Origin: a virus
Direction: 5' to 3' (one strand)
Length of the DNA: 64,000 nt
IMG/VR virus record: IMGVR_UViG_3300042555_002918
Location: 81,389-145,388 of that record
In this document: piece after piece, positions 4,185 through 32,264 of the stretch
How positions within the stretch are numbered: the first letter of the stretch is position 1
How the letters are laid out: each line of letters opens with the position of its first letter
The notes under the pieces: model-generated
What the model was told of the DNA's origin: nothing
What the model saw: the letters and a program-made list of their open reading frames with translations, nothing else
Database searches by the model: none
Position numbers and translations under genes: made by a program

Positions 4185-6161
4185 TTATATTGCTTCGTGA
4201 CGAGCTCCTGACTCAATAATGAGGTACTGTGTTGTTCCAATCTGTAAAATCAGTGGGGTTGGATACTTGGAACCGGGCTTCTTAAACCTCCAGTGGTCTC
4301 GCCCTCCATTGCCGTTACCGGAGTATCGACCAGCTTCGATGAATCGTCCCTTCTTGTGCACGGGCCGCTTTACCTTCCAGGTCGTAATTGACCCGCCCTT
4401 GCTCTTATATACAAGGGTTGCGTCCTCTAGCTGTCCCGTTGGGAGAGCCTCATACAGCTTTGCCTTCTGCCCTAGGGCGTGAGAAAGAACTACCAGCTTA
4501 CCGTCGGAGTCTGCCGTAGGTTTATACAGGTCTTGGGCTCGTTTAGTTCCTTCGACCACGGAATCCCCGTTGAAGATATACCCTTCCTTTGGTGTGAAAC
4601 TTGTAACTAAGTCGCTTTTGTTATCGGCGTCATTTTCCTCAAAGTCTACGGAGGGAGCTGGTATAACAGGAATCGGAACCACTACGCCTATACCGGCGGC
4701 AATTTCTGTAAGTTCAGAATAATGGGCGCGGATGAAGTTTCCGGTTGTGAATGGGCTATCAAAAAACGTGAGAGGACCTTCAGTTAATACGACCCTTCCC
4801 GCTTTGAGCACGTTACCGCCTCTAGCCTCAATCTTTGTATCGTTACCCTCAATTTGAACATCACCTTTGGCTTTTACCTTAATCTCTCCCTCAACAGCTA
4901 CATTAAGGTCCCCTTTGATAAGGATGCGCACATCGCCATCGACTACGGTATATGCGTTCTTTGCAATTTTCGTGTTGGCATTGCCTCCGACTTTGACGTT
5001 TAAATCGCTTCCTGAGTCCTGATTCATCGCTCCGCCAGACTCCAGAGTAACCTCCTGTATGCCGAGGGCTCGTAAAGTCTCCTTAGCGGTAATGTTGACG
5101 CTCTTCTCTGAAACGTAACTTGAGTTACCCAGTGCCAAGTCAAACCGGTCATTTACCGCTTTGTCGACCTGCTTTCCATCGGGGTGAATCTCTTTAAATG
5201 TTCCGCTTCGATGGAAGAAATGAAGTCTCTCTGCCAGTGGGGTATCATCGTATTCGATTACGTGCCCTGACTCTGACTCGTAAACGTGGTTAAATGGATA
5301 CTGGGCAGCATAAGGTGTTTCTGGTTCTCCCATCGACTCGCCGTCAGATGCTTTATCGGTCCCTACACCCATGGCGGCATGTGTTGCAGTCGGCGCAGTC
5401 AGAGACGCCCCCTTCTTTCTTGCTACAAGGGTTTGATCCGTATTTTCATTCCTCGCTAATCGGCTTGCTACTGATTCTCTGAGTTGATGCTCAAGGGGAT
5501 ATCTTGAAATTGGGACCTGGGGGGTGTCCGCTGGACCTGCGCCGTCAAAGAAATCTCCCTCATCATCGCCTGAGCCAGTAGTTCCGTCTTGGTCAGGGTC
5601 TATAAGAAGTGATGCGTCAGATGAATCGTATTTTCCGTCTCCATTGACATCATATGGGAAAGGATTTACCCCGAACTCTTTAGCAAGTTGTCCGGTCGAT
5701 GTTGACTGAATTGGCAACTTGTCGGGATTTTCATATTTACCAGTGGCAGACTCCCCCGACTCTGATGATTCAGGTGTTGGAGGAGGAATCATCTCTGGGG
5801 GACGGGCGACTTTACCGGCAATCAGGTTTTCGTCTGGGGTTGGATCGTTATACCCCTCATTTGGATTTGCTGGCTTCTCGGGAATCCCGGGAATCTTACC
5901 CAGGATTATAGGATACTGCTTTGCTTCGCCGTCTCTAAAATACCCAGCAACAAAATCTCCCTCTTTGTATCCAACAACGTTCTTTCCATCATCGGCCGGG
6001 AGTAACGGCATCGCCCACGGTAAGCTATCAGTGGGCATCTTTTGCTTGTCGGCATCGTGAAATCCGATTGCTCGAACCCTTACTCTTCCGATGAAAAGTG
6101 GGTCGTTTCTGTCCTCTACGACACCCTCAAAGAGAATCAGTTCTTTTCCGCCGAAAAACAT
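4185..6161 (-). CDS. gp5: baseplate hub/spike gp5-like protein without lysozyme domain, with extra C-terminal domain
   Basis: OB-fold FEGVVEDRNDP..GRVRVR..LPWA; YPFNHVYESESGHVIEYDDTP.AERLH..HRSGTF.EIHPDG; beta-helix repeats. Confidence 0.92.
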   Translation of the reverse strand: MFFGGKELILFEGVVEDRNDPLFIGRVRVRAIGFHDADKQKMPTDSLPWAMPLLPADDGKNVVGYKEGDFVAGYFRDGEAKQYPIILGKIPGIPEKPANPNEGYNDPTPDENLIAGKVARPPEMIPPPTPESSESGESATGKYENPDKLPIQSTSTGQLAKEFGVNPFPYDVNGDGKYDSSDASLLIDPDQDGTTGSGDDEGDFFDGAGPADTPQVPISRYPLEHQLRESVASRLARNENTDQTLVARKKGASLTAPTATHAAMGVGTDKASDGESMGEPETPYAAQYPFNHVYESESGHVIEYDDTPLAERLHFFHRSGTFKEIHPDGKQVDKAVNDRFDLALGNSSYVSEKSVNITAKETLRALGIQEVTLESGGAMNQDSGSDLNVKVGGNANTKIAKNAYTVVDGDVRILIKGDLNVAVEGEIKVKAKGDVQIEGNDTKIEARGGNVLKAGRVVLTEGPLTFFDSPFTTGNFIRAHYSELTEIAAGIGVVVPIPVIPAPSVDFEENDADNKSDLVTSFTPKEGYIFNGDSVVEGTKRAQDLYKPTADSDGKLVVLSHALGQKAKLYEALPTGQLEDATLVYKSKGGSITTWKVKRPVHKKGRFIEAGRYSGNGNGGRDHWRFKKPGSKYPTPLILQIGTTQYLIIESGARHEAI

Positions 6162-14112: not shown

Positions 14113-14949
14113 CTAAAAATTGTTTGGGTTTACGCCTGCTTGAACGAGGTAGTGGGTTCTTTTTCCGCGAGCAAAAAGGGCGCTCGGAGCGGGTTTTGAG
14201 AACTCCTCCAATATTGCATCCCTAATTGTTTCTGGGATGTACTCAAAGCTTATAAGTCTTTGATTACGTTCAAAGTGTGCCTTATAGGTCTCTGGTATAC
14301 CGCCATCTCCCACGAAAAAGTTGTCTATATATATAGAGAACGCCTTTGCAGACACGACGGTCTGGCGCTCATTTAATACGAATACGGCATCCTTGGAGTG
14401 TAGATTTGGGATGCCATCGTTCCTGTCTCCGCGAATGATCTTCTCTCGCAAGTCATCTTCCGGGGACTCAGTTCGGTACACTGAATCCCTTCGCTTTGAA
14501 TACTGACTGATATATGGGAGCCTATGCAGCTGATGGAAATCTTTATCCTCTGATATGATGATGCTCGGCTCTTGGTTTGTAGTTGCTAGAACAGCTACTA
14601 CATCATCCCCTTCTGCTCCTGGGACGCAAACAACTCTAAATACTGCGTGTTCGGTTAGCTCATCTCGAATCAGCCGATTAAGTCGGTCAATCTCTTTCCA
14701 TTTAACTGCCTCTTCGGCTCTGGTAATTTTTCGTCTGGCTTTGTAGTGGGGGTATATCTCGTACCTCCATGAGCGTCGTCCGTCGCAGCAAACAATCAAT
14801 TCTCCATATTGATGCTTGAATCGGTTCTGAACAATGAAGAGAGTATGAAGAACGTGCTTTCTGAAATCGCTTTCCGTAACTTCCGAGACCTCTCGCTCCT
14901 GGGCAAAGAAGCATGAAATCAGCAAATGAGAGAAGTCAACGTATATCAC
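14113..14949 (-). CDS. rnh: RNase H / 5'-3' exonuclease
   Basis: WRYEIYPHYKARR, AEGDD, ISEDKDFHQL, GDRNDGIPN, RNQRLI. Confidence 0.93.
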   Translation of the reverse strand: MIYVDFSHLLISCFFAQEREVSEVTESDFRKHVLHTLFIVQNRFKHQYGELIVCCDGRRSWRYEIYPHYKARRKITRAEEAVKWKEIDRLNRLIRDELTEHAVFRVVCVPGAEGDDVVAVLATTNQEPSIIISEDKDFHQLHRLPYISQYSKRRDSVYRTESPEDDLREKIIRGDRNDGIPNLHSKDAVFVLNERQTVVSAKAFSIYIDNFFVGDGGIPETYKAHFERNQRLISFEYIPETIRDAILEEFSKPAPSALFARGKRTHYLVQAGVNPNNF

Positions 14950-19647: not shown

Positions 19648-20247
19648 TTACGCTCCTCTCTTAATTCGGTCGACGATGTAGCGCCGGAACGCCCTCGCTT
19701 CGGAGATTCGAAATGAAAGGGAGTAACGTTGGTACTCGGCTGGGGCGTATCCAAGTACCCTTTGAATATGCTCTGCTTTTCGTATCAGCGCCCCAAGTTG
19801 TCCCCCAACAAAGAAGAGATCATCAAGGGGAAGCTCAATTGCCGCTTCGTATACCGTGCGTGCCGAAATAGCCTGGTAGAGCTCCAAAAGAATGTCCTGG
19901 ATATCATCAGTCAAAGTGGTACCTCTCAATTCTGACAACGAGGGTACGTAACGGCGACTGATGCCGAGCATTACCTTTTCAGCGACAAGTTCACTTTTTG
20001 TGATGCTCGGACCTGGATTGGCTAAGTTACGCGACTTCTGTTTCATACTGCTCCACGTCGAATATCGGTCTTGCACAGAGGCATTGAGGCACATATGCTC
20101 AAGTCCTTCGGCCCGACCTTGCTTCAGGTCTGGATAGATTCGGCAGCCTTCAAACAGCGCGTAATACGAAAAGCTCTGGTCGACCGCCCCAAAAGGGAAG
20201 AAGTCAATAGAAATTCGATGAGATACGTCGAGTAACTTTTTTTTCAA
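19648..20247 (-). CDS. hypothetical protein
   Basis: 199-aa ORF with TTG start; contains an internal promoter motif. Confidence 0.45.
   Translation of the reverse strand: MKKKLLDVSHRISIDFFPFGAVDQSFSYYALFEGCRIYPDLKQGRAEGLEHMCLNASVQDRYSTWSSMKQKSRNLANPGPSITKSELVAEKVMLGISRRYVPSLSELRGTTLTDDIQDILLELYQAISARTVYEAAIELPLDDLFFVGGQLGALIRKAEHIQRVLGYAPAEYQRYSLSFRISEARAFRRYIVDRIKRGA
19941..19975 (-). promoter_or_regulatory. early/middle-type promoter motif
   Basis: GGTAATGCTCGGC-N16-TACCCT. Confidence 0.75.
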
Positions 20248-21416: not shown

Positions 21417-21451
21417 GGTAATGCTCGGCGCTTAATGCTCTCCCGTAGGCT
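21417..21451 (+). promoter_or_regulatory. early/middle-type promoter motif
   Basis: GGTAATGCTCGGC-N16-TAGGCT. Confidence 0.75.
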
Positions 21452-22094: not shown

Positions 22095-22145
22095 AAAAAA
22101 GCCCCGGTGTCGCATGGTGAGTGCGGCATCGGGGCTTCTTCTTTT
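22095..22145. terminator. bidirectional intrinsic terminator
   Basis: A6-GCCCCGGTGTCGCA-loop-TGCGGCATCGGGGC-T-rich. Confidence 0.8.
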
Positions 22146-22291
22146 GGGGGTCGTGAGTGGTTTGGTGGGTAGCGGATCATCTGTCCGCTTTATCTGTTTG
22201 CCTTTGCTTTTGACTTCTTGTTACTGTTTAAGAGAGCGGACATTTTGGGCTCACTTCGTTCGATGCTTTTGAGTAAAACGCACTCGAACTT

Positions 22292-22314
22292 CGTGGTCAT
22301 AAAATGGTCCAAAA
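22292..22314 (+). repeat. putative integrase arm-type site (left)
   Basis: CGTGGTCATAAAATGGTCCAAAA, near-identical to 22587-22607. Confidence 0.65.
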
Positions 22315-22439
22315 CATCGAAAAACACGTAGCGAAAAGTGGCTACAAAGAGCAAAAACGAACGCACAAACCGTTAGGAGTTTTGCTTTGAAAAGTGTGGT
22401 GTTTTAGGGGAATAAATAACCATTTCAGTGAGATAGAAA

Positions 22440-22490
22440 TGGAGCGGGTGAAGAGATTCGAACTCTCGACCTCTTCCTTGGCAAGGAAGA
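22440..22490 (-). mobile_element. attP core: 3' part of tRNA-Gly(GCC)
   Basis: Reverse complement TCTTCC-TTGCCAA-GGAAGAGGTC-GAGAG-TTCGAAT-CTCTT-CACCCGCT-CCA gives anticodon arm, T arm, acceptor 3' strand and CCA. The 5' acceptor strand and D arm are absent. About 180 bp upstream of the integrase. Confidence 0.88.
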
Positions 22491-22572
22491 CAGTCGAGAG
22501 TTAGATTCGAGGTGAGACTACCTTAACCTGCTGATTTACCTACCCTTATCACCTTCTCATTTTTCAAACATA

Positions 22573-22607
22573 GGTCAAAAAAGGTCCGTGGTCCAAAATG
22601 GTCCAAA
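22573..22607 (+). repeat. putative integrase arm-type sites (right)
   Basis: GGTCAAAAAAGGTCCGTGGTCCAAAATGGTCCAAA, tandem GGTC(C)AAAA units. Confidence 0.65.
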
Positions 22608-22631
22608 TTTTGACCCGCAAAAATGCCCTAG

Positions 22632-22666
22632 GGGAATGTTTGAGCGTTCGTCATAGCTCTTAAGTT
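22632..22666 (+). promoter_or_regulatory. variant promoter motif upstream of integrase
   Basis: GGGAATGTTTGAG-N16-TAAGTT; close to the 56603 variant. Confidence 0.5.
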
Positions 22667-22673
22667 AGGAGGC

Positions 22674-23792
22674 ATGATGAAGCAAAAAAACATCGTCGAG
22701 CGCACCACTGCTAATGGCGAAAAGCGGTATCGAGTGAGGGTAAGGCTTAAGGGGGTCTACGTGAGCAAGACATTTCGCTCTAAGGCCCATGCCCAACAAT
22801 GGCTCCAGAATCAGTCGAGGACCATCGGAGCATCGGCTGAACTTGGAATCCTGGATGACTCAGACTACAGCACAAAGACCGTCAAGGATGCTGTGGAGTC
22901 CTTCCGGACATTCAAGCTCCCTACCCTGACATCGGGGGAGAATAACCGGAGTCTGCTGGATGAGATTGTCAGGACCCTAGGAACCAAGAAGCTTAACGAC
23001 GTGGACCACGACGACGTGTTCCTGGCGGTAAGGGAATATCGTAGTGGGGGGAAAAGGGGTCGGTCTGAATCGTCGGCCAATAAGTTTATCAACCTCATCT
23101 CGTCGGTGTTCACCGAGGCAAGGCGAAAGAAGTGGACCAAGAACAAGCCCACCGAGTTTGTTAAGCGATACGATGAAGAGAGGTTTCAGCGAACCAGGTC
23201 TCTCAGCAAGGAGGAGGAGGAAAGGCTTATTAAGGAGGCAGAGAAGAACATTTACCCAAACTCCGTAGTTTCAATCTGGTTGGCCCTCCTCACCGGATAC
23301 CGGAAGGACTGGATCCGCCATATGAAGTGGGACTACATCAACTTTGACAGGAGAATGATCCAGCTACCCTTGGGGAAGATTAACCCTCATGGAAAGACTG
23401 GTAAGAATACAGCTAAGGGTTTACCCATCGTTGAGAAGCTCTATCAAGAGTTGAAAAAGCATAGAGCCCTCTTGCGTGCAGCTGGCGTCAATAGTCCCTA
23501 CCTGTTTCCTCAGGAGAGTAACGCTAATAAGGCTTGGGACATCATAGCTGCGTATAAGAGCGCAGTAAAAAGAGCTGGTATTGAGAACTTAACGTTCCAC
23601 GACCTTCGACATAGCGCGGCGACTAACCTGGTAATGAAGGGGATTCATCAGCGGATTATCGGAGAGATGCTTGGGCACAAGGACGCTAGGAGTACTCAGC
23701 GATATACCCATGTGCCAACTGAGCATATGAGAAATGAACTTGAGAAAGCCTTTTCCTATTCAAATGATGGAGGTGAAGATGAGACCGTGTAA
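22674..23792 (+). CDS. int: tyrosine integrase
   Basis: N-terminal arm-binding-like YRVRVR..SKTF..K..AQQW; catalytic TGYR, HDLRH, LGH, TQRYTH all intact. Confidence 0.95.
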   Translation: MMKQKNIVERTTANGEKRYRVRVRLKGVYVSKTFRSKAHAQQWLQNQSRTIGASAELGILDDSDYSTKTVKDAVESFRTFKLPTLTSGENNRSLLDEIVRTLGTKKLNDVDHDDVFLAVREYRSGGKRGRSESSANKFINLISSVFTEARRKKWTKNKPTEFVKRYDEERFQRTRSLSKEEEERLIKEAEKNIYPNSVVSIWLALLTGYRKDWIRHMKWDYINFDRRMIQLPLGKINPHGKTGKNTAKGLPIVEKLYQELKKHRALLRAAGVNSPYLFPQESNANKAWDIIAAYKSAVKRAGIENLTFHDLRHSAATNLVMKGIHQRIIGEMLGHKDARSTQRYTHVPTEHMRNELEKAFSYSNDGGEDETV

Positions 23793-24003
23793 GTACCCAG
23801 ACTACGTAAAAGCCCAAGACCTAGCAGATGAATTTGGAATAGAGCCATTGCTAGCCAAGGCAATGATTTACTTCCGGCAGATCAACGGCCTATGCGATGC
23901 GGGAGCTATTATGATTTTGCATGGCTCAAGGGTCATGATCCACAAGGAGAAGTTCCAGAACTGGATGGAACGAAAAAAGCTTCCAAAGAGCGTCATCTGG
24001 TAA
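23779..24003 (+). CDS. excisionase-like (MerR/AlpA-type wHTH) protein 1
   Basis: Overlaps int end; R..NGL....I....RVMI....FQNW. Confidence 0.6.
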   Translation: MRPCKYPDYVKAQDLADEFGIEPLLAKAMIYFRQINGLCDAGAIMILHGSRVMIHKEKFQNWMERKKLPKSVIW

Positions 24004-24065
24004 TGTTGGAGCGATGATCGTAGTTGATAAATTGAAACTCGACAGGATGAAACACCTGGAGGGTT

Positions 24066-24287
24066 ATGACAAACGACACCGCTACAATATCCAATCTTCT
24101 AACACCAAAGCAGCTTGTGGAGCGTCATCGGTGGCTGACAATGGGTACTCTCAGGAAATACCTTTTTCACCGAATGTACAACGGTCTGGCTGAACAGAAA
24201 GTTGTCATTGCTCTATCTCAAAAGAAGCTTTTGATAGACGAAGCGCGGTTCATAAATTGGGTCAGATCTCATGGTCCCACCTGCTAA
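24066..24287 (+). CDS. excisionase-like (MerR/AlpA-type wHTH) protein 2
   Basis: LLTPKQL..TLR..R..NGL..KKLLID..RFINW; paralog of the preceding gene. Confidence 0.7.
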   Translation: MTNDTATISNLLTPKQLVERHRWLTMGTLRKYLFHRMYNGLAEQKVVIALSQKKLLIDEARFINWVRSHGPTC

Positions 24288-24298
24288 GACATTTAACT

Positions 24299-24323
24299 AG
24301 GCCCTCCTCGCGAGGGCCTTTTC
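24299..24323 (+). terminator. intrinsic terminator
   Basis: AGGCCCTC-CTCGC-GAGGGCCT-TTT closes the int-xis operon. Confidence 0.75.
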
Positions 24324-24351
24324 ATTTCTCCCGTTCTGACATTCTCCAAAA

Positions 24352-24386
24352 GGTAATGCTCGGCGATTAGTCCACTTCCCTACCCT
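24352..24386 (+). promoter_or_regulatory. early/middle-type promoter motif (HNH)
   Basis: GGTAATGCTCGGC-N16-TACCCT. Confidence 0.75.
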
Positions 24387-24392
24387 GGGAAA

Positions 24393-24986
24393 ATGGAACA
24401 GCGCACATTACAAATTCCTCAGGAGTTCATTTTAGAAGGTGAAGAGTGGAAGCCAATGCCAAAATATCCCGACCTCTTCGGCATTTCCAACCTAGGGAGG
24501 TCATGGAGCATTACGAAGCAAAAAATCATCAAGCCCTGGAAAGATAAAGACGGGTATCTCCAATATCGCAATTACGTAGCAGGCCTGGACTGTATGATTT
24601 CCTTTAGACCTCACCGCGAAGTGGCTGCTGCCTTTATACCCAACCCACACAATTACCCTCAGGTTCACCATATTGACGACGACAAGCTTAACAACTCAGC
24701 TTCTAACTTGAAGTATGGCACAGCCAAAATGAACCAACTGGATGCTGAGAGAAATAAGGTAGAGGGCTACGCTCATCGCAGGGCAGTCGTTGGGATTCAT
24801 ATCGAGACCGGAGAAAAGAAAAGATACCCAAGCGTACGTGACGTTGAGAAGGACGGCTTTAACTTCAGTAACGTCCGCCAGTGCTGTAAGGGCAAACGGC
24901 ACAAAGCTCATGGGTACAGGTGGAAATACGCCGACGAGGCGAATGTTTCAAACATGTTCTTGGTAGATAAAATCCCTGCCGAATAG
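24393..24986 (+). CDS. HNH homing endonuclease (NUMOD4-HNH-NUMOD1-like)
   Basis: EEWKP..ISNLGR, HREVA.AFIPNP, VHHIDDDKLNN..SNL; C-terminal HTH with GYRWKY. Confidence 0.9.
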   Translation: MEQRTLQIPQEFILEGEEWKPMPKYPDLFGISNLGRSWSITKQKIIKPWKDKDGYLQYRNYVAGLDCMISFRPHREVAAAFIPNPHNYPQVHHIDDDKLNNSASNLKYGTAKMNQLDAERNKVEGYAHRRAVVGIHIETGEKKRYPSVRDVEKDGFNFSNVRQCCKGKRHKAHGYRWKYADEANVSNMFLVDKIPAE

Positions 24987-25321: not shown

Positions 25322-25585
25322 CTACTTCCCCTTGGTCGCTTTGTCTAACATCCGGGCTAGGTCATATTGGTCGAGTCCTAGCTTTTCAAACCACTCGGTA
25401 ATGAGAGAGACCTTTAACTGATAAATGCCGCTGGTATACTGACGGTAGTACTGCCGAAGGATTCCTAGCTCCTTGGCGATTGCATAGTCAGTCATCCCCG
25501 TACGATCATTAAGCAGGTCGAAAAAGAGCACCTGATTGAATGAACCTTTGGGCTTAGTTTGACGTTTGCTCTTTTTCTTAATCAT
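25322..25585 (-). CDS. XRE/HTH DNA-binding protein, candidate repressor
   Basis: GMTDYAIAKELGILRQYYRQY.SG helix-turn-helix pattern. Confidence 0.6.
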   Translation of the reverse strand: MIKKKSKRQTKPKGSFNQVLFFDLLNDRTGMTDYAIAKELGILRQYYRQYTSGIYQLKVSLITEWFEKLGLDQYDLARMLDKATKGK

Positions 25586-26376: not shown

Positions 26377-27024
26377 TCATTTCTGACCAATCGATTTGAT
26401 GAACTTCTGGTAAGCGTCAAAGCTAACCCGCTGTATTTGAGCGGCGGGCGCGGCTTCAATAGCTTTTTTGGTTTCTTCGACCACACGTGAGACCCAAGTT
26501 CCCTCAGCAGAAAGCACCCACTCCTTGTTCTCCATGACCGCTTGAACGAAAGCATCAGGCGCAGATGGGTTCATCACAACATCACCCGCCGTCACGAGAA
26601 CGAAAGGAGTGCCGACTTCCTCATGTCCTTCAGTTGTTAAAGAGACGGATCCTACGGCCCGGGTAGAAACACCGAACTGAACTCCGCCTTTTAGTAATCC
26701 TCGCAAAACATTTCCCATCGGGGTGTCGAGCACGAGTGCTCTACCCACGTAGTTGTTTCCTTCGCGAGCCAAGGTAACAATTCGATGTGAGATGCGATCA
26801 ATGTTGAGGTTTGGATTTGTTGGGTGGTCAGCTTCGCCTACCGCCTTACCCGTGTTCACTTGATTTTGGATATAATCCTCGATGATCGGAGCGATCTTTT
26901 GTGATGGGTAGAACCGGTTGTTCCGGTTAATGGTATCGAGCTGAATGAAGACTCCCTCAAAGTAGAGTTTGTTATCCTCTTCTTGTCTCTTCAATTCAAA
27001 ATTGGCTTCTTGTAGTAGCTTCAT
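26377..27024 (-). CDS. gp21: prohead core protease
   Basis: EGVFIQ..NRNNRFYP, GEADHP, RISH.I, LDTPMG, GVSTRA.GS, D.V.NPSAPDAFV. Confidence 0.95.
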   Translation of the reverse strand: MKLLQEANFELKRQEEDNKLYFEGVFIQLDTINRNNRFYPSQKIAPIIEDYIQNQVNTGKAVGEADHPTNPNLNIDRISHRIVTLAREGNNYVGRALVLDTPMGNVLRGLLKGGVQFGVSTRAVGSVSLTTEGHEEVGTPFVLVTAGDVVMNPSAPDAFVQAVMENKEWVLSAEGTWVSRVVEETKKAIEAAPAAQIQRVSFDAYQKFIKSIGQK

Positions 27025-27096
27025 AGCGATATAGAGGTCAGTCTGTTTCCCTCTATTTATAGCCCTGGGATTTGGGGTGGTCCGATAAATAGCTTG

Positions 27097-27906
27097 ATGG
27101 CAAAGCGTCAATACCCCATCGAGATACGGGACGTAGCTCCTGGGCCTGGAGCCGTCAGAATGACCGGAAAAACGGTTATTGGAGGCTTAGACGGTCTGCA
27201 TACAGGTGGCGCATGGCTCTACCAGAACAAGGTCTGGAAGCCCTTAGACGGCAGGCCTTATCAAAATGCTCAGTTTCATATCGAGACGGATGAGGAAGCC
27301 TGCCTTAAAGCTCTTCAAGGAAAACCCCTATTCCCAAAGAACTGGGAAATTGCAGAAGCCAACGGGCGACGATTTACCGTAAGAGACAAGGTGCAGACCT
27401 TTCCTGGAGGAGGATTAACCCTCAACGCTTCTCAAGTGCAGGAAATCGAAAAGGGCATTAGGGAGATGAACAGATCTGGATGGGCAGTAAATGACAACCT
27501 TGTCATCGGACGCGATGGCTCAGGGCGGCTCTTCATCGTTGACCTTTCAAACGCGTCGCACTCGACCCAGACGGGAATCCATAAACCGGACGACGGGTTC
27601 TTCTTAGATGAGCTAATGAAACAGGCTGGCTTTGGTGAGATAGTCAAATTAAAGAAGCTCGCTCAAGAGATGCGAGGTTTAATGATTTTCAATAAAGCTT
27701 TTAGTAAGTACTCAAGCTACCGCTGGATCTACTCATCGAAACAGAAGAGTGAGATTACGGGAACTGTTGATGTCACGGCGATGGCAAGTGAACTTAACGC
27801 CGTTGATAGTGGGGTTGCTCGCCAATTTTCTTGGTATGCAAGCAAGTCCGAGCTTCAGCAATCTGTAGTTCGGTCAAAGGGACTAACGCTGAGAGTAGCG
27901 GGATAG
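27097..27906 (+). CDS. protein kinase-like hypothetical protein
   Basis: Gly-rich start, VWK, E..CL..L, M...GW.VND, FIVDLS (DFG-like); TAAATA 5 nt before ATG. Confidence 0.45.
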   Translation: MAKRQYPIEIRDVAPGPGAVRMTGKTVIGGLDGLHTGGAWLYQNKVWKPLDGRPYQNAQFHIETDEEACLKALQGKPLFPKNWEIAEANGRRFTVRDKVQTFPGGGLTLNASQVQEIEKGIREMNRSGWAVNDNLVIGRDGSGRLFIVDLSNASHSTQTGIHKPDDGFFLDELMKQAGFGEIVKLKKLAQEMRGLMIFNKAFSKYSSYRWIYSSKQKSEITGTVDVTAMASELNAVDSGVARQFSWYASKSELQQSVVRSKGLTLRVAG

Positions 27907-27910
27907 CGAC

Positions 27911-29587
27911 CTACTCTCCGCTATCGACTGGAAATGTCTCAGAGCCTGGAACAGGTTCCTGGGGATCAACTGGCTCACTTTGAGGAGCCCCACCGAGAGG
28001 TTGTCCTGTCATTGGATCTATTTGCATCCCGGTAGCTGGGTCCACAATAGGAGGCGGTATAATCTCACCTCGGGCCATCTCCTCCTGAATCTCAGATTGC
28101 ATCTTTAGCTGCTCATCATCGGTCATCTTAAAGATGTGCTGTTTGATCCACTTGTTTGACAAATATTTTCCAACAAACCCCTGAGCCTCGGCCGCGAGAG
28201 CCATTCGACTTGTATAGACCGTTGCCTCGGACATCTCTGAATAGTAGTTGTCAGATGCAAACTTGTACTTCCAGTTACTGAGAAGATATTCCATATCAGC
28301 TTCGTCCTGAACTATACCTTTCAGTCGAAGTTGAGTGGCTAAAAGAGTGTCGAACAAGCTTGAGAACTGCTTTCTCAACCGATGAATCATCTTTGCAAAC
28401 TGACGCTCATCGCGAGACACCATTCCCGTATTTCCAAACAACGCCACTGCATCTTGCTCCAGGCGGGATGGAGGAACATTCAATGCTCGAAGGAGCTGTT
28501 TGTTGAAGTAGTCAATTGTGCTCGTGTCGTCAAAGCCTGCCCCGCCGGGGATAGCATCAACTTGAACGGACTCTCCTGAGCTAGGTACCGGAATGAAGAT
28601 GTCGTCGATGATGGACATTACCTTGCGCTCATCGACCACGTCGCCGGTGATTGCATCGAAGGCTGTCTTTGTGCGGTATTGAGCCACAATTTGATCAAGA
28701 TAGTGACTGACTTGCTTTTCCGGCATCTGCCCGGTTGGTATTCTCCACACTCTTCGCTCTGGCGCTCGGGCAACCTTATAGATGAGGGTGGCGTTCTCCA
28801 TGCTCTTCAACTGAGACATGGGCCGAATAGCTTTATGTAGGTACGAGAGGATAACTGAGCTGGTAGAATCGAAGATGCCCGAGTGAACAAAGGCAATCGA
28901 ATCCCTTGTGAGCTTTACTCCATTTATGATTGGATTCTTCCCAAATGGGACGACCGCCGTGCCGTTGTAATCAATTCCAAACGGAGCATAGACAAAGTAC
29001 TCATTTACAATGTCCGTGTACTCAATCTGAGTGGCTGGGTCTATCCGTTTGTCGACCTCAATGAACTTCCTTATTTGACGAGGGTCAATGTAGCGAAGCT
29101 CCTTTATACCCATGCGAGGGTCTTGATGGGGAAGGATCTGATAGAACAACCTTCCATCAGTGTAATAATTTCGGAAGAGCTGATAAGACTCATTGGTCCA
29201 GTTAAGGAGTTTGAGTACATTTTCAAACTCATCCGTGAGGATTTTCTTAACTTCATCTGGAATCTGCTCGCAATCCGTAAGGTCAAGCTCAACAGCCGAG
29301 TGTTCGCCGTCTTGTACAATACACTCATTGGTAATCTCATTGATTGCCCAGTCCACTAAAGGATGTAACGACAGATCGCGATATCGGGTAATGAGTTGGT
29401 ACTCTGTCAGCTGTCCGTCAATCTTGGTCTGAGAGTTCCCGAGGTACCCGAATTGGTTGGGTGCGCCAATTACCACACTCCCATCGTTTGGATTTGGGGG
29501 CACAGGAGACGACAGCTTTGCCTCCGAATCGCGCCGGAACGCAAAGCCGAACAGCCGAGAGATTAAGAAAGATCGTGTTTGTGCCAT
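27911..29587 (-). CDS. gp20: portal protein
   Basis: LI.RYR...HP.VD.AI.EI, YYTDGR, ELRYIDPR, SYLHKAI, IY.VARAPERR, L.VP.SR. Confidence 0.95.
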   Translation of the reverse strand: MAQTRSFLISRLFGFAFRRDSEAKLSSPVPPNPNDGSVVIGAPNQFGYLGNSQTKIDGQLTEYQLITRYRDLSLHPLVDWAINEITNECIVQDGEHSAVELDLTDCEQIPDEVKKILTDEFENVLKLLNWTNESYQLFRNYYTDGRLFYQILPHQDPRMGIKELRYIDPRQIRKFIEVDKRIDPATQIEYTDIVNEYFVYAPFGIDYNGTAVVPFGKNPIINGVKLTRDSIAFVHSGIFDSTSSVILSYLHKAIRPMSQLKSMENATLIYKVARAPERRVWRIPTGQMPEKQVSHYLDQIVAQYRTKTAFDAITGDVVDERKVMSIIDDIFIPVPSSGESVQVDAIPGGAGFDDTSTIDYFNKQLLRALNVPPSRLEQDAVALFGNTGMVSRDERQFAKMIHRLRKQFSSLFDTLLATQLRLKGIVQDEADMEYLLSNWKYKFASDNYYSEMSEATVYTSRMALAAEAQGFVGKYLSNKWIKQHIFKMTDDEQLKMQSEIQEEMARGEIIPPPIVDPATGMQIDPMTGQPLGGAPQSEPVDPQEPVPGSETFPVDSGE

Positions 29588-30918: not shown

Positions 30919-32229
30919 TTAGAGAAGATTCTTGATCTTGAACTTTCTATACCAAACGTTGCTGTTTGCAGTGAACGCGCCAGTGCTGTTTCCTGCAAGG
31001 TTTCCGAAAGGCGACTCAACGCAACCATACCTAGTCTTGAAAGCAAGACTTGGCTGGTAACTCTTCGGATCAGTAGCTTGGAACATCTGAAGCGGAGTAT
31101 ATGGAGCGTAGAAGAATCCAGCATCCATTGGGCTTGGCCCCTTGTACCCTACTACAGCGAAGTTCACGTTTGCTGGAATATATGGATCAGCGTAAACCTT
31201 CCATCGTCCCATCAATGTACCAACATAGGTACGTCCGCTCTCCTCAACACCGATGTCAACCTTAAGAGCGTCTGTGCAATCAAGGAGCTTAGCCATCGAA
31301 AGAGCGGCAGCAGTGTTGCTGTCGCAGATAACGATGTTACCAATTCCACGACGAGTCTCGCGAGCAATTGCGTTAGACTCACGAGCAAGTTGGATGATAA
31401 GTCCAACGTACTTCTCAGCATGGAATCGTCCGTCAGCATCTTGATTAAGGTCGAACTCACCTGGAGTTGCGAGGCCCTCATCCTGACATCCTACCTTAGC
31501 GATGTGGTAGATGGTACGGATGACTTCACGGTTAATCTCACTGAGAAGCTCAGTTGCAACGATCTCAGCAAGCTCTTTCTGAGCATCAAGGCCGTGTACA
31601 GCCATGAGGTCTTGCATAAGCTCATGTGTGTACGATGCACGCAACGCACGAGTCTTAGCCTCAACTGGGATACGGTCGATGCTAAGAGACATCTCAGGCA
31701 TATCTGGGGACGATCCGCCAGTTCCAAGAGCCTCACCAGCAGCGGTCGTAAGACCGGTTCCGCGAGAGAAACCTACATCGAATGGATCAACTGTCGTCGA
31801 GTGGGTTCCGGCTCCTGTGAAGTCGGTGTCTGCCTCATTGTGAAGAGCCTCAGTTCCACCCTGGCTCGTGTACTTCGCCTTAAGAGCAAAGATGAACGAG
31901 TTTGGCGCCGACATTGGCTGAACGCCTGCTACGTCAAATGCCATCATGTACGGCAAAGAACGTCGAAGCATGGTCATAAGAGGAACAGTGAATCCCTTAA
32001 GATTTGGATTCTCTGGGAAAGCCCCTGCACTGTTAGCAGCAGCATCCTCGGTAATGAACTTGCTGTTAAAGTCGCGATAAACAGCGTTGGTCTTGATATC
32101 CTGTAATTGGTTCTCCAGGAGGCAAGCGATTACTCTCTCTTTATACTCGTTGAGTTTAGGGAAAGCCTGGTGGCGCAATACGCCCTTCCAGCTCTCTACG
32201 AGTACCCTAGAAGTGTCATTCTTAATCAT
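30919..32229 (-). CDS. gp23: major capsid protein
   Basis: LLENQ, GVQPM..P...IFAL, EM...I....VEAKTRALRA.YT.EL.QDL.AVHGLDA, EINREV, GYKG, FKTRYG. Confidence 0.98.
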   Translation of the reverse strand: MIKNDTSRVLVESWKGVLRHQAFPKLNEYKERVIACLLENQLQDIKTNAVYRDFNSKFITEDAAANSAGAFPENPNLKGFTVPLMTMLRRSLPYMMAFDVAGVQPMSAPNSFIFALKAKYTSQGGTEALHNEADTDFTGAGTHSTTVDPFDVGFSRGTGLTTAAGEALGTGGSSPDMPEMSLSIDRIPVEAKTRALRASYTHELMQDLMAVHGLDAQKELAEIVATELLSEINREVIRTIYHIAKVGCQDEGLATPGEFDLNQDADGRFHAEKYVGLIIQLARESNAIARETRRGIGNIVICDSNTAAALSMAKLLDCTDALKVDIGVEESGRTYVGTLMGRWKVYADPYIPANVNFAVVGYKGPSPMDAGFFYAPYTPLQMFQATDPKSYQPSLAFKTRYGCVESPFGNLAGNSTGAFTANSNVWYRKFKIKNLL

Positions 32230-32264
32230 TTTCAAAACTCCTATCCTTTGGTGGAAGTTAAAAT

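Follow-up and report, generated by a model that had tools for sequence, protein, structure and literature searches.

The genome of an uncultured T4-like myovirus from lakes carries, between its T4-type core genes, what is probably a functional lambda-type site-specific integration module, composed of a tyrosine integrase gene (int), a phage attachment site (attP) with the 3′ part of a tRNA-Gly(GCC) gene as its core, and two small accessory open reading frames (ORF A and ORF B). We analyzed this module in a 64-kb stretch of DNA, hereafter the window, which corresponds to bases 81389-145388 of a 145,388-bp IMG/VR virus record (IMGVR_UViG_3300042555_002918) with a completeness rating of 100%. Judging from comparisons with host genomes and related phages, there is a good chance that this virus is competent for integration, and the module appears to be a self-contained, terminator-bounded unit that has been retargeted to other tRNA genes in sister lineages. 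Its parts are listed here in coordinates of the window (contigs and loci compared with it are referred to by L numbers):

22140-24394: integration cassette of 2.25 kb with attP, int, ORF A, ORF B, the terminator, and the next promoter box
22099-22137, plus strand: strong intrinsic-terminator-like hairpin (17-bp stem with 10 GC pairs, then a T run) that ends the upstream gene and forms the left cassette edge
22293-22313, plus strand: int-distal arm of attP, CGTGGTCATAAAATGGTCCAAA, putative arm-type integrase sites
22440-22489, minus strand: attP core, made up of the last 50 nt of tRNA-Gly(GCC) (5′ strand of the anticodon stem through CCA)
22455-22508: imperfect palindrome formed by the anticodon hairpin and adjoining phage-specific DNA (16-nt arms 88% complementary; 27/30 inverted match)
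22478-22484: anticodon loop of the attP core
22585-22607, plus strand: int-proximal arm of attP, GGTCCGTGGTCCAAAATGGTCCAAA, a tandem GGTCC(A) repeat
22629-22641, plus strand: conserved box TAGGGGAATGTTT, ca. 35 nt upstream of int, a variant of the dispersed promoter-like box GGTAATGCTCGGC
22674-23792, plus strand: tyrosine integrase of 372 aa, whose start may be the second ATG at 22677
23779-24003, plus strand: ORF A, 74 aa, which overlaps the end of int and co-varies with it; winged-helix fold in a structural model
24066-24287, plus strand: ORF B, 73 aa, highly conserved; winged-helix in a structural model
24299-24319, plus strand: terminator-like hairpin closing the int-A-B unit

The phage has a single attP-like site that extends over ca. 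22290-22610. Its core is identical at all 50 positions (50/50 nt) to the full-length tRNA-Gly(GCC) genes of 27 host genomes, so that the tRNA fragment seen in the first-pass annotation of this DNA is real and perfectly matched, though its length is 50 nt and not the 51 nt given there. The repeats that had been noticed on either side of the fragment were also recovered, as GGTCCAAA-type sequences at 22293-22313 and 22585-22607: the 145-kb genome holds eight copies of GGTCCAAA on both strands, three of which lie at attP, on one strand, and flank the core. Counterparts of the int-distal arm, i.e., GTCCAAA-type repeats, are present in the related contigs L002 and L005, and tandem repeats of the same type occupy the int-proximal position in L002, L004, L005, and L060. 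As in attP sites of the anticodon-loop type, a host-identical tRNA segment thus reaches to the tRNA 3′ end with arm-type repeats on both sides. The palindrome at 22455-22508 is a candidate for the core-type sites around the crossover and is not kept in L002. A search of IMG/VR with the tRNA-core pattern gave 0 matches. Three apparent hits in this context were rejected. A tRNA-like Rfam match in the attP of the window (25.5 bits) is below the gathering score and represents a pseudo-fit of the 3′ half to unrelated 5′ sequence. The 81-nt tRNA-Val(GAC) called by ARAGORN at L005:9775-9855 is likewise a pseudo-fit below the Rfam gathering score, with phage DNA 5′ of the 3′ half partly pairing with the acceptor 3′ strand. 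Finally, a 12/13-nt repeat of the core within the HNH endonuclease gene to the right of the cassette (24467-24479), considered as an att duplicate, is at chance level.

The integrase matches PF00589 (E = 3e-27; 95.8 bits at a cut-off of 27.1) and phrog_1 (E = 1.5e-53). Its residues R210, K244, H309, R312, H335, and Y344 align with the catalytic residues of XerD and XerC-like structures and are invariant in eight orthologues, in agreement with the intact catalytic motifs that had first been reported for it. In comparison with the 88% identical orthologue of L002, nonsynonymous divergence (dN) is 0.075 and synonymous divergence (dS) is 1.55, and the resulting dN/dS of 0.049 points to an integrase that is kept under purifying selection. 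The identity of the protein to integrases from cultured phages does not exceed 27%. Among 5.8 billion proteins, only five close relatives were found, all of them in syntenic T4-like contexts; these top five homologues are all phage-borne, and identity then drops to ca. 31%. The ca. 30% identical homologues P0006 and P0007 were considered as T4-like phage relatives and rejected, as both are located in ordinary chromosomal islands. No relative was found when IMG/VR was searched with the integrase.

As had been proposed at first pass, we searched bacterial genomes for a host tRNA-Gly matching the core. When 185,579 species genomes were searched for an exact 42-nt stretch of the tRNA part, 27 had it, in each case as part of a full 77-nt tRNA-Gly(GCC) gene, and all 27 genomes belong to one GTDB order (91 genomes) within a small phylum of 124. 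Their NCBI labels are those of freshwater Bdellovibrionota or Deltaproteobacteria metagenome-assembled genomes (MAGs) from Lake Mendota, Erken, Loclat, Zurich, and several rivers. By this match, the host appears to be an uncultured freshwater order labelled Bdellovibrionota/Deltaproteobacteria, a group for which no tailed T4-like phages are known.

One MAG contig of this order (L014; G001:C294, Lake Mendota 2005) contains phage-like elements downstream of its tRNA-Gly(GCC) gene at the same offsets as in the phages. These comprise a 22/23-nt match to the P-arm-proximal sequence of the window, a 21/24-nt match to the P arm of L005 at the offset seen in L005, and tandem TTTGGACG repeats at 125-150 nt. 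The local alignments score 33-43, compared to 17.6 ± 2.3 for shuffled sequences (maximum 29) and at most 22 for the corresponding downstream regions of other hosts, which marks L014 as an attL-like junction left by an element of this att family. An attR was not found in host DNA. In other host genomes (L033:5096-5330, also L019 and L023), tandem units lie downstream of tRNA-Gly(GCC), each ending in the last 17 nt of the tRNA (TCTCTTCACCCGCTCCA). The same loci contain inverted partial copies of the T-arm, and most other hosts have repetitive extragenic palindrome (REP)-like tandem repeats at this place. The tandem tRNA-end units and T-arm copies point to the host tRNA-Gly(GCC) gene as a hot spot where other elements integrate as well.

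The carrier of the module is recognizably T4-like, with Pfam and PHROG matches to T4-type core genes on its left and right as stated in the first-pass annotation. The assignable genes on the flanks and the direct neighbors of the cassette are:

4185-6161: gp5 hub-lysozyme, left flank
14113-14949: T4 RNase H, left flank
24393-24986, plus strand: HNH homing endonuclease (NUMOD4, HNH_3, phrog_59), adjoining the right cassette edge as a neighbor and not a member of the module
25322-25585, minus strand: small XRE-family helix-turn-helix (HTH) protein of 87 aa (HTH_3, 23.8 bits), on the opposite strand to its neighbors and 1 kb from the cassette
26377-27111: gp21 protease, right flank
27911-29587: gp20 portal, right flank (phrog_213 at 1e-142)
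30919-32235: Gp23, right flank (PF07068 at E = 1.7e-109)

Further genes on the right flank encode the scaffold protein, RNR, gp41, UvsX, gp43, gp44, gp46, and gp47, so that the T4 core set is represented by Gp23, gp20, gp21, gp5, gp43, gp41, gp44, gp46/47, UvsX, and RNase H. The polymerase profile match is very strong (phrog_262 at 1e-239), and the gp43 polymerase is ca. 36% identical to that of cyanomyoviruses, which places the phage in a distant, uncultured T4-like lineage. A 127-bp terminal repeat at the ends of the 145,388-bp record indicates a circular assembly. For the gene left of attP, an exact-protein look-up returned no entry on record.

At least six related phage lineages have the module in the same slot, and comparing them shows how the attachment site has changed. 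The Gly(GCC) core is retained in L002/L003 (integrase 88% identical) and L004 (68%), with identity to the tRNA stopping at the anticodon loop in L004. Phage L060 (59%) carries the 3′ part of tRNA-Gly(CCC) instead, exactly as in the tRNA-Gly(CCC) of the host order, which is encoded a few hundred bp downstream of tRNA-Gly(GCC); here, identity begins at the first base of the anticodon loop. As the minimal identity shared with the host extends from the anticodon loop to the 3′ end, the crossover likely lies in or beside this loop. L005/L006 (58%) carry the 3′ part of tRNA-Val(GAC), a core for which the host order gave no match, and neither did the phylum when up to two mismatches were allowed. Tandem GTCCAAA-type repeats are common to all close relatives, flanking the core on both sides wherever the contig reaches far enough, and these two-sided arms are kept even where the tRNA of the core differs. 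A more drastic change is seen in L042 (IMGVR_UViG_3300035663_000060)/L043, the one further relative behind the only two records that searches of IMG/VR with the portal and ORF B retrieved. These phages are close to the window in portal (79% identical) and Gp23 (89%) and have an integrase of only 30% identity in the same slot, where a ca. 230-bp AT-rich core without tRNA resemblance is bracketed by tandem TGTGCCA repeats (L042:15800-16150). No convincing match (attB) to this type of core region was found in the host order.

Beyond what the first-pass annotation had described, the comparison points to a discrete 2.25-kb cassette that is swapped between diverged phages. Positions 22140-24394 have ca. 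100% identity with L066, L067, and L068 but are embedded in flanks of 50-84% identity (portal 78%), which argues that the attP-int-A-B unit has been exchanged en bloc between co-circulating phages. The block of 100% identity with L066 begins just after the 22099-22137 hairpin, and its right end is the start of the HNH gene, which L066-L068 lack. This gene is present in the window, L004, L005, and L069 and cleanly absent (gap at 24394-24813) from L002, L066-L068, and L070, all of which carry the same or a near-identical cassette.

The two small genes behind int had been called excisionase-like. What stands is that ORF A and ORF B are paralogous (hhalign 94.6%) and are modeled as winged-helix proteins (pLDDT, the predicted local distance difference test, of 80 and 74, respectively); their identity as excisionases (Xis) is only plausible, because neither has a sequence match in Pfam, PHROG, or PDB and the structural resemblance to Xis is weak. 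The best TM-scores of ORF B, to the Xis proteins of Tn916 and Pukovnik, are 0.51 by query and 0.60-0.63 by target with Foldseek E > 0.1. Relatives of ORF B are rare (15 among 5.8 billion proteins), and one of 57% identity accompanies the unrelated integrase of L042, where ORF A is absent. ORF A is a candidate recombination directionality factor, and ORF B may be either a regulator or a second such factor.

A terminator had been noted at first pass, and the hairpin at 24299-24319 agrees with this; the additional one at 22099-22137 is the stronger of the two. Upstream of int, GGGGAATGT is invariant in the window, L004, and L005 and aligns with AGGGAATGT in L002; likewise, GGGGAATGTTTGAG precedes int with a GGGAATGT core that is invariant in the relatives. 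The dispersed GGTAATGCTCGGC box, with a TACCCT-like hexamer 16 nt behind it, was found on the minus strand at 19975, 20777, 34479, 38168, and 44865 and on the plus strand at 21417 and 24352, the last being upstream of the HNH gene. Variants of it precede int (22631) and ORF B (23999). The TGCT within this box recalls the MotA box of T4. These observations would fit an expression of int within the phage's own program, as the first-pass annotation had proposed from a variant promoter motif: the motif holds up as a conserved box similar to GGTAATGCTCGGC, whereas the wiring into the phage program is suggested by that resemblance only.

Taken together, we propose that the integrase would bind the GGTCCAAA-type arm repeats on both sides as well as the core around the anticodon hairpin and recombine the 50-nt phage copy of the tRNA-Gly(GCC) 3′ part with the tRNA-Gly(GCC) gene of the host, with strand exchange presumably in or next to the anticodon loop. 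The whole circularized 145-kb genome would thereby be inserted. An intact tRNA would be rebuilt at attL from the phage-borne 3′ part, while attR would receive int and the displaced 3′ part of the host gene. ORF A, and perhaps ORF B, would bind DNA and most likely set directionality or regulate the unit.

Several observations weigh against integration by this phage. At the level of the module, the arm-binding N-terminal domain of the integrase (residues 1-65) is without a Pfam match, with the phrog_1 alignment beginning at residue 9, and neither ORF A nor ORF B is demonstrably an excisionase. Searches of the phage for the families Peptidase_S24 and HTH_3 gave no CI/LexA-like repressor: the former is absent, and the only proteins matching the latter are the small XRE-family one encoded at 25322-25585 and, elsewhere in the genome, one of the HTH_31-DUF5753 type. 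The XRE gene, which is the only repressor-like candidate near the module, is not conserved, with homologues in L004 and L069 only. Among phage contigs, every one that is long enough to tell has the attP form, and junction-side sequences (the tRNA 3′ end plus P-arm flank, and the int-proximal arm) had 0 matches in JGI metagenome contigs. On the host side, a search of the 91 genomes of the order with Gp23 detected no T4-like prophage (0/91) and, where gp23 relatives had been expected beside tRNA-Gly in bacterial assemblies, yielded only a stray 3.7-kb contig binned in a host-order MAG (L046; G083:C43:1-3691) with a T4-type major capsid protein 48% identical to that of the window; in G083, the only MAG so searched, portal and polymerase genes were not found. 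The same 91 genomes contain no close homologue of the integrase (best 34% identical), and their 28-34% identical integrases adjoin other full tRNA genes as ordinary islands do. Past the L014 junction, small ORFs occupy ca. 1 kb, and genes for SDR, FAD-oxidase, SHMT-like, and P450 proteins come next. As none of these are phage genes, the junction would be a scar or the trace of another carrier sharing this att system. The absence of prophages is weak evidence, since the host genomes are incomplete MAGs, which often lose prophages.

These observations invite other explanations of the module. It could be an island inserted in a phage-encoded tRNA gene, in keeping with the tRNA genes that T4-like phages often carry and that have been proposed as substrates of mobile elements (PMC3037559), or a phage-host assembly chimera joined at the tRNA, given that short-k assemblies break at this segment: five Logan contigs (k = 31) from different runs all begin inside the tRNA part, at the equivalent of window position 22460. 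Such breaks are expected of a de Bruijn graph if the sample also contains a host-type tRNA that continues differently on its 5′ side. Yet the complete genome has neither a tRNA gene (ARAGORN) nor a second copy of the core, which marks the site as an attP and not as an island inserted by its own recombinase; the full-length tRNA-Gly that the first-pass annotation had named as evidence to the contrary is nowhere in it. G+C content is flat across the region, and the T4 core genes extend to its left and right. Independent assemblies of at least seven samples through the JGI, ENA, and Logan pipelines yielded the same attP form, which argues against a chimera. Both variants are therefore largely refuted and have a very small probability, and the early interpretation of the site as an unrecombined attP rather than the attL/attR of a small island is upheld by the missing tRNA gene, the single core, and the conserved arms. 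It is less improbable, but still rather unlikely, that the module is a selfish or captured cassette from islands of the host order that homologous recombination, perhaps with co-conversion beside the HNH gene, shuffles among phages for neutral or cassette-only use. The ca. 100% identical block in diverged backbones with its sharp edges at the terminator and the HNH start would fit this, as would a locus that is a replacement hot spot (L042 having a different integrase there), the 28-34% identical integrases beside full tRNA genes of host-order genomes, and the non-phage genes past the L014 junction. However, a neutral passenger would decay, and here dN/dS is ca. 0.05 while every lineage has retained the catalytic residues, the arms, and an exact host core; moreover, no close relative of the integrase was found outside T4-like contexts, and the cassette edges show no att duplication.

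If the module is used by the phage itself, as we consider probable, this could be as a true temperate virus, with the 145-kb genome residing at tRNA-Gly(GCC) as a repressed prophage and ORF A and/or ORF B acting as excisionase on induction. All evidence for integration applies to this scenario as well. It would also be in line with retention of the module under purifying selection across lineages with ca. 57-59% identical integrases, the repeated retargeting to host tRNAs, the two predicted DNA-binding genes in the unit, the attL-like footprint in a host MAG, and the small divergent XRE gene nearby. Against it stand the 0 prophages among 91 genomes (with the weakness given above), the lack of a Peptidase_S24/CI-type repressor together with the XRE gene missing from several relatives, and the uniform attP form of the contigs. 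In addition, T7-like cyanophages that have such a module do integrate, yet they form no lysogens (PMC8776855). We thus regard this explanation as doubtful, and a temperate lifestyle with stable lysogeny is a tentative proposition at best. The first-pass annotation had spoken of an apparently complete module and a candidate temperate phage, and neither "complete" nor "temperate" is borne out, given the repressor, prophage, and attP results. By analogy with the T7-like cyanophages, we lean towards integration at low frequency during lytic infection, or a conditional state, over stable lysogeny.

As a separate observation, the HTH_31-DUF5753 protein (276 aa) adjoins a DUF6879 protein (223 aa) on the minus strand at G000:C1:34142-35654 (L058:853-2365), outside the window. 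Such pairs are typical of bacterial chromosomes and might be a toxin-antitoxin-like or defense-related unit.

T4-like phages are textbook virulent viruses and are treated as purely lytic in ecological models, host-range work, and safety screens for phage therapy. A clade of them that keeps, retargets, and trades a host-matched cassette would mean that chromosomal integration is available to the T4-like architecture, possibly with consequences such as lysogeny or pseudolysogeny, specialized transduction near tRNA genes, and effects on superinfection. The most far-reaching version, which we judge to be considerably less likely than integration competence as such, would be a whole clade of freshwater T4-like myoviruses that are truly temperate, with ca. 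145-kb prophages in tRNA genes of uncultured Bdellovibrionota-lineage bacteria, an exchangeable and retargetable integrase cassette, and a new winged-helix family of directionality or regulatory proteins. If true, this would overturn the view of the T4 superfamily as strictly virulent. Irrespective of this, an uncultured T4-like lineage gains a precise order-level host assignment, and the compact 2.25-kb unit of attP, int, and accessory genes is amenable to a direct recombination assay. In full-text searches of the literature, no description of a T4-like phage that is temperate or integrates was found, and the Far-T4 paper makes no mention of integrases.

Arm-dependent tyrosine integrases acting at the anticodon-loop region of tRNA genes are exemplified by those of mycobacteriophage L5 (tRNA-Gly), HP1 (tRNA-Leu), and P22 (tRNA-Thr), and integration sites within tRNA genes were reportedly divided into sublocation classes by Williams in 2002. 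The module described here shares with these systems an attP that spans the anticodon loop to the tRNA 3′ end, an adjacent int, arm-type direct repeats on both sides, a small gene for a directionality factor next to int (here a candidate), and a tRNA that is regenerated upon integration (here a prediction). It differs from them in an integrase that is at most 27% identical to those of cultured phages, in accessory proteins that match no Xis family by sequence, and in its carrier, which is a T4-like genome with its own replisome.

The nearest parallel in terms of biology is offered by the T7-like cyanophages P-SSP7 and S-TIP37, which also belong to an archetypally lytic family and encode a tyrosine integrase beside an attP that exactly matches part of a host tRNA gene. 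There, int and a tRNA-matched attP drive low-frequency integration during lytic infection, both being needed for it, and no lysogens were obtained (Shitrit et al. 2021, PMC8776855). Unlike these 45-kb podoviruses, which target tRNA-Leu of a cyanobacterial host and whose integration was established by experiment, the virus studied here is a 145-kb T4-like myovirus directed at tRNA-Gly of a Bdellovibrionota-labelled host, with tRNA-Val as the target in some relatives, and it is known from sequence alone. Its attP lies upstream of int with clear arm-type repeats on both sides, and two accessory genes, winged-helix proteins according to the models, are present. Integrating pelagiphage podoviruses are similar in being aquatic phages whose hosts are uncultured or fastidious and in having a tyrosine integrase as well as att sites that match tRNA genes and permit host assignment; they have podovirus backbones, and integration is reported there for isolates, in contrast to the metagenomic evidence presented here (bioRxiv 10.1101/410191). 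Within the T4-like phages themselves, the module is reminiscent of the mobile cassettes and homing endonuclease genes of plastic genome regions (PMC3037559) in occupying a variable slot between core genes next to a polymorphic HNH gene and in being exchanged en bloc. Unlike in those cassettes, the cargo is not a nuclease or a metabolic gene but what looks like a complete system for site-specific recombination with the host chromosome.

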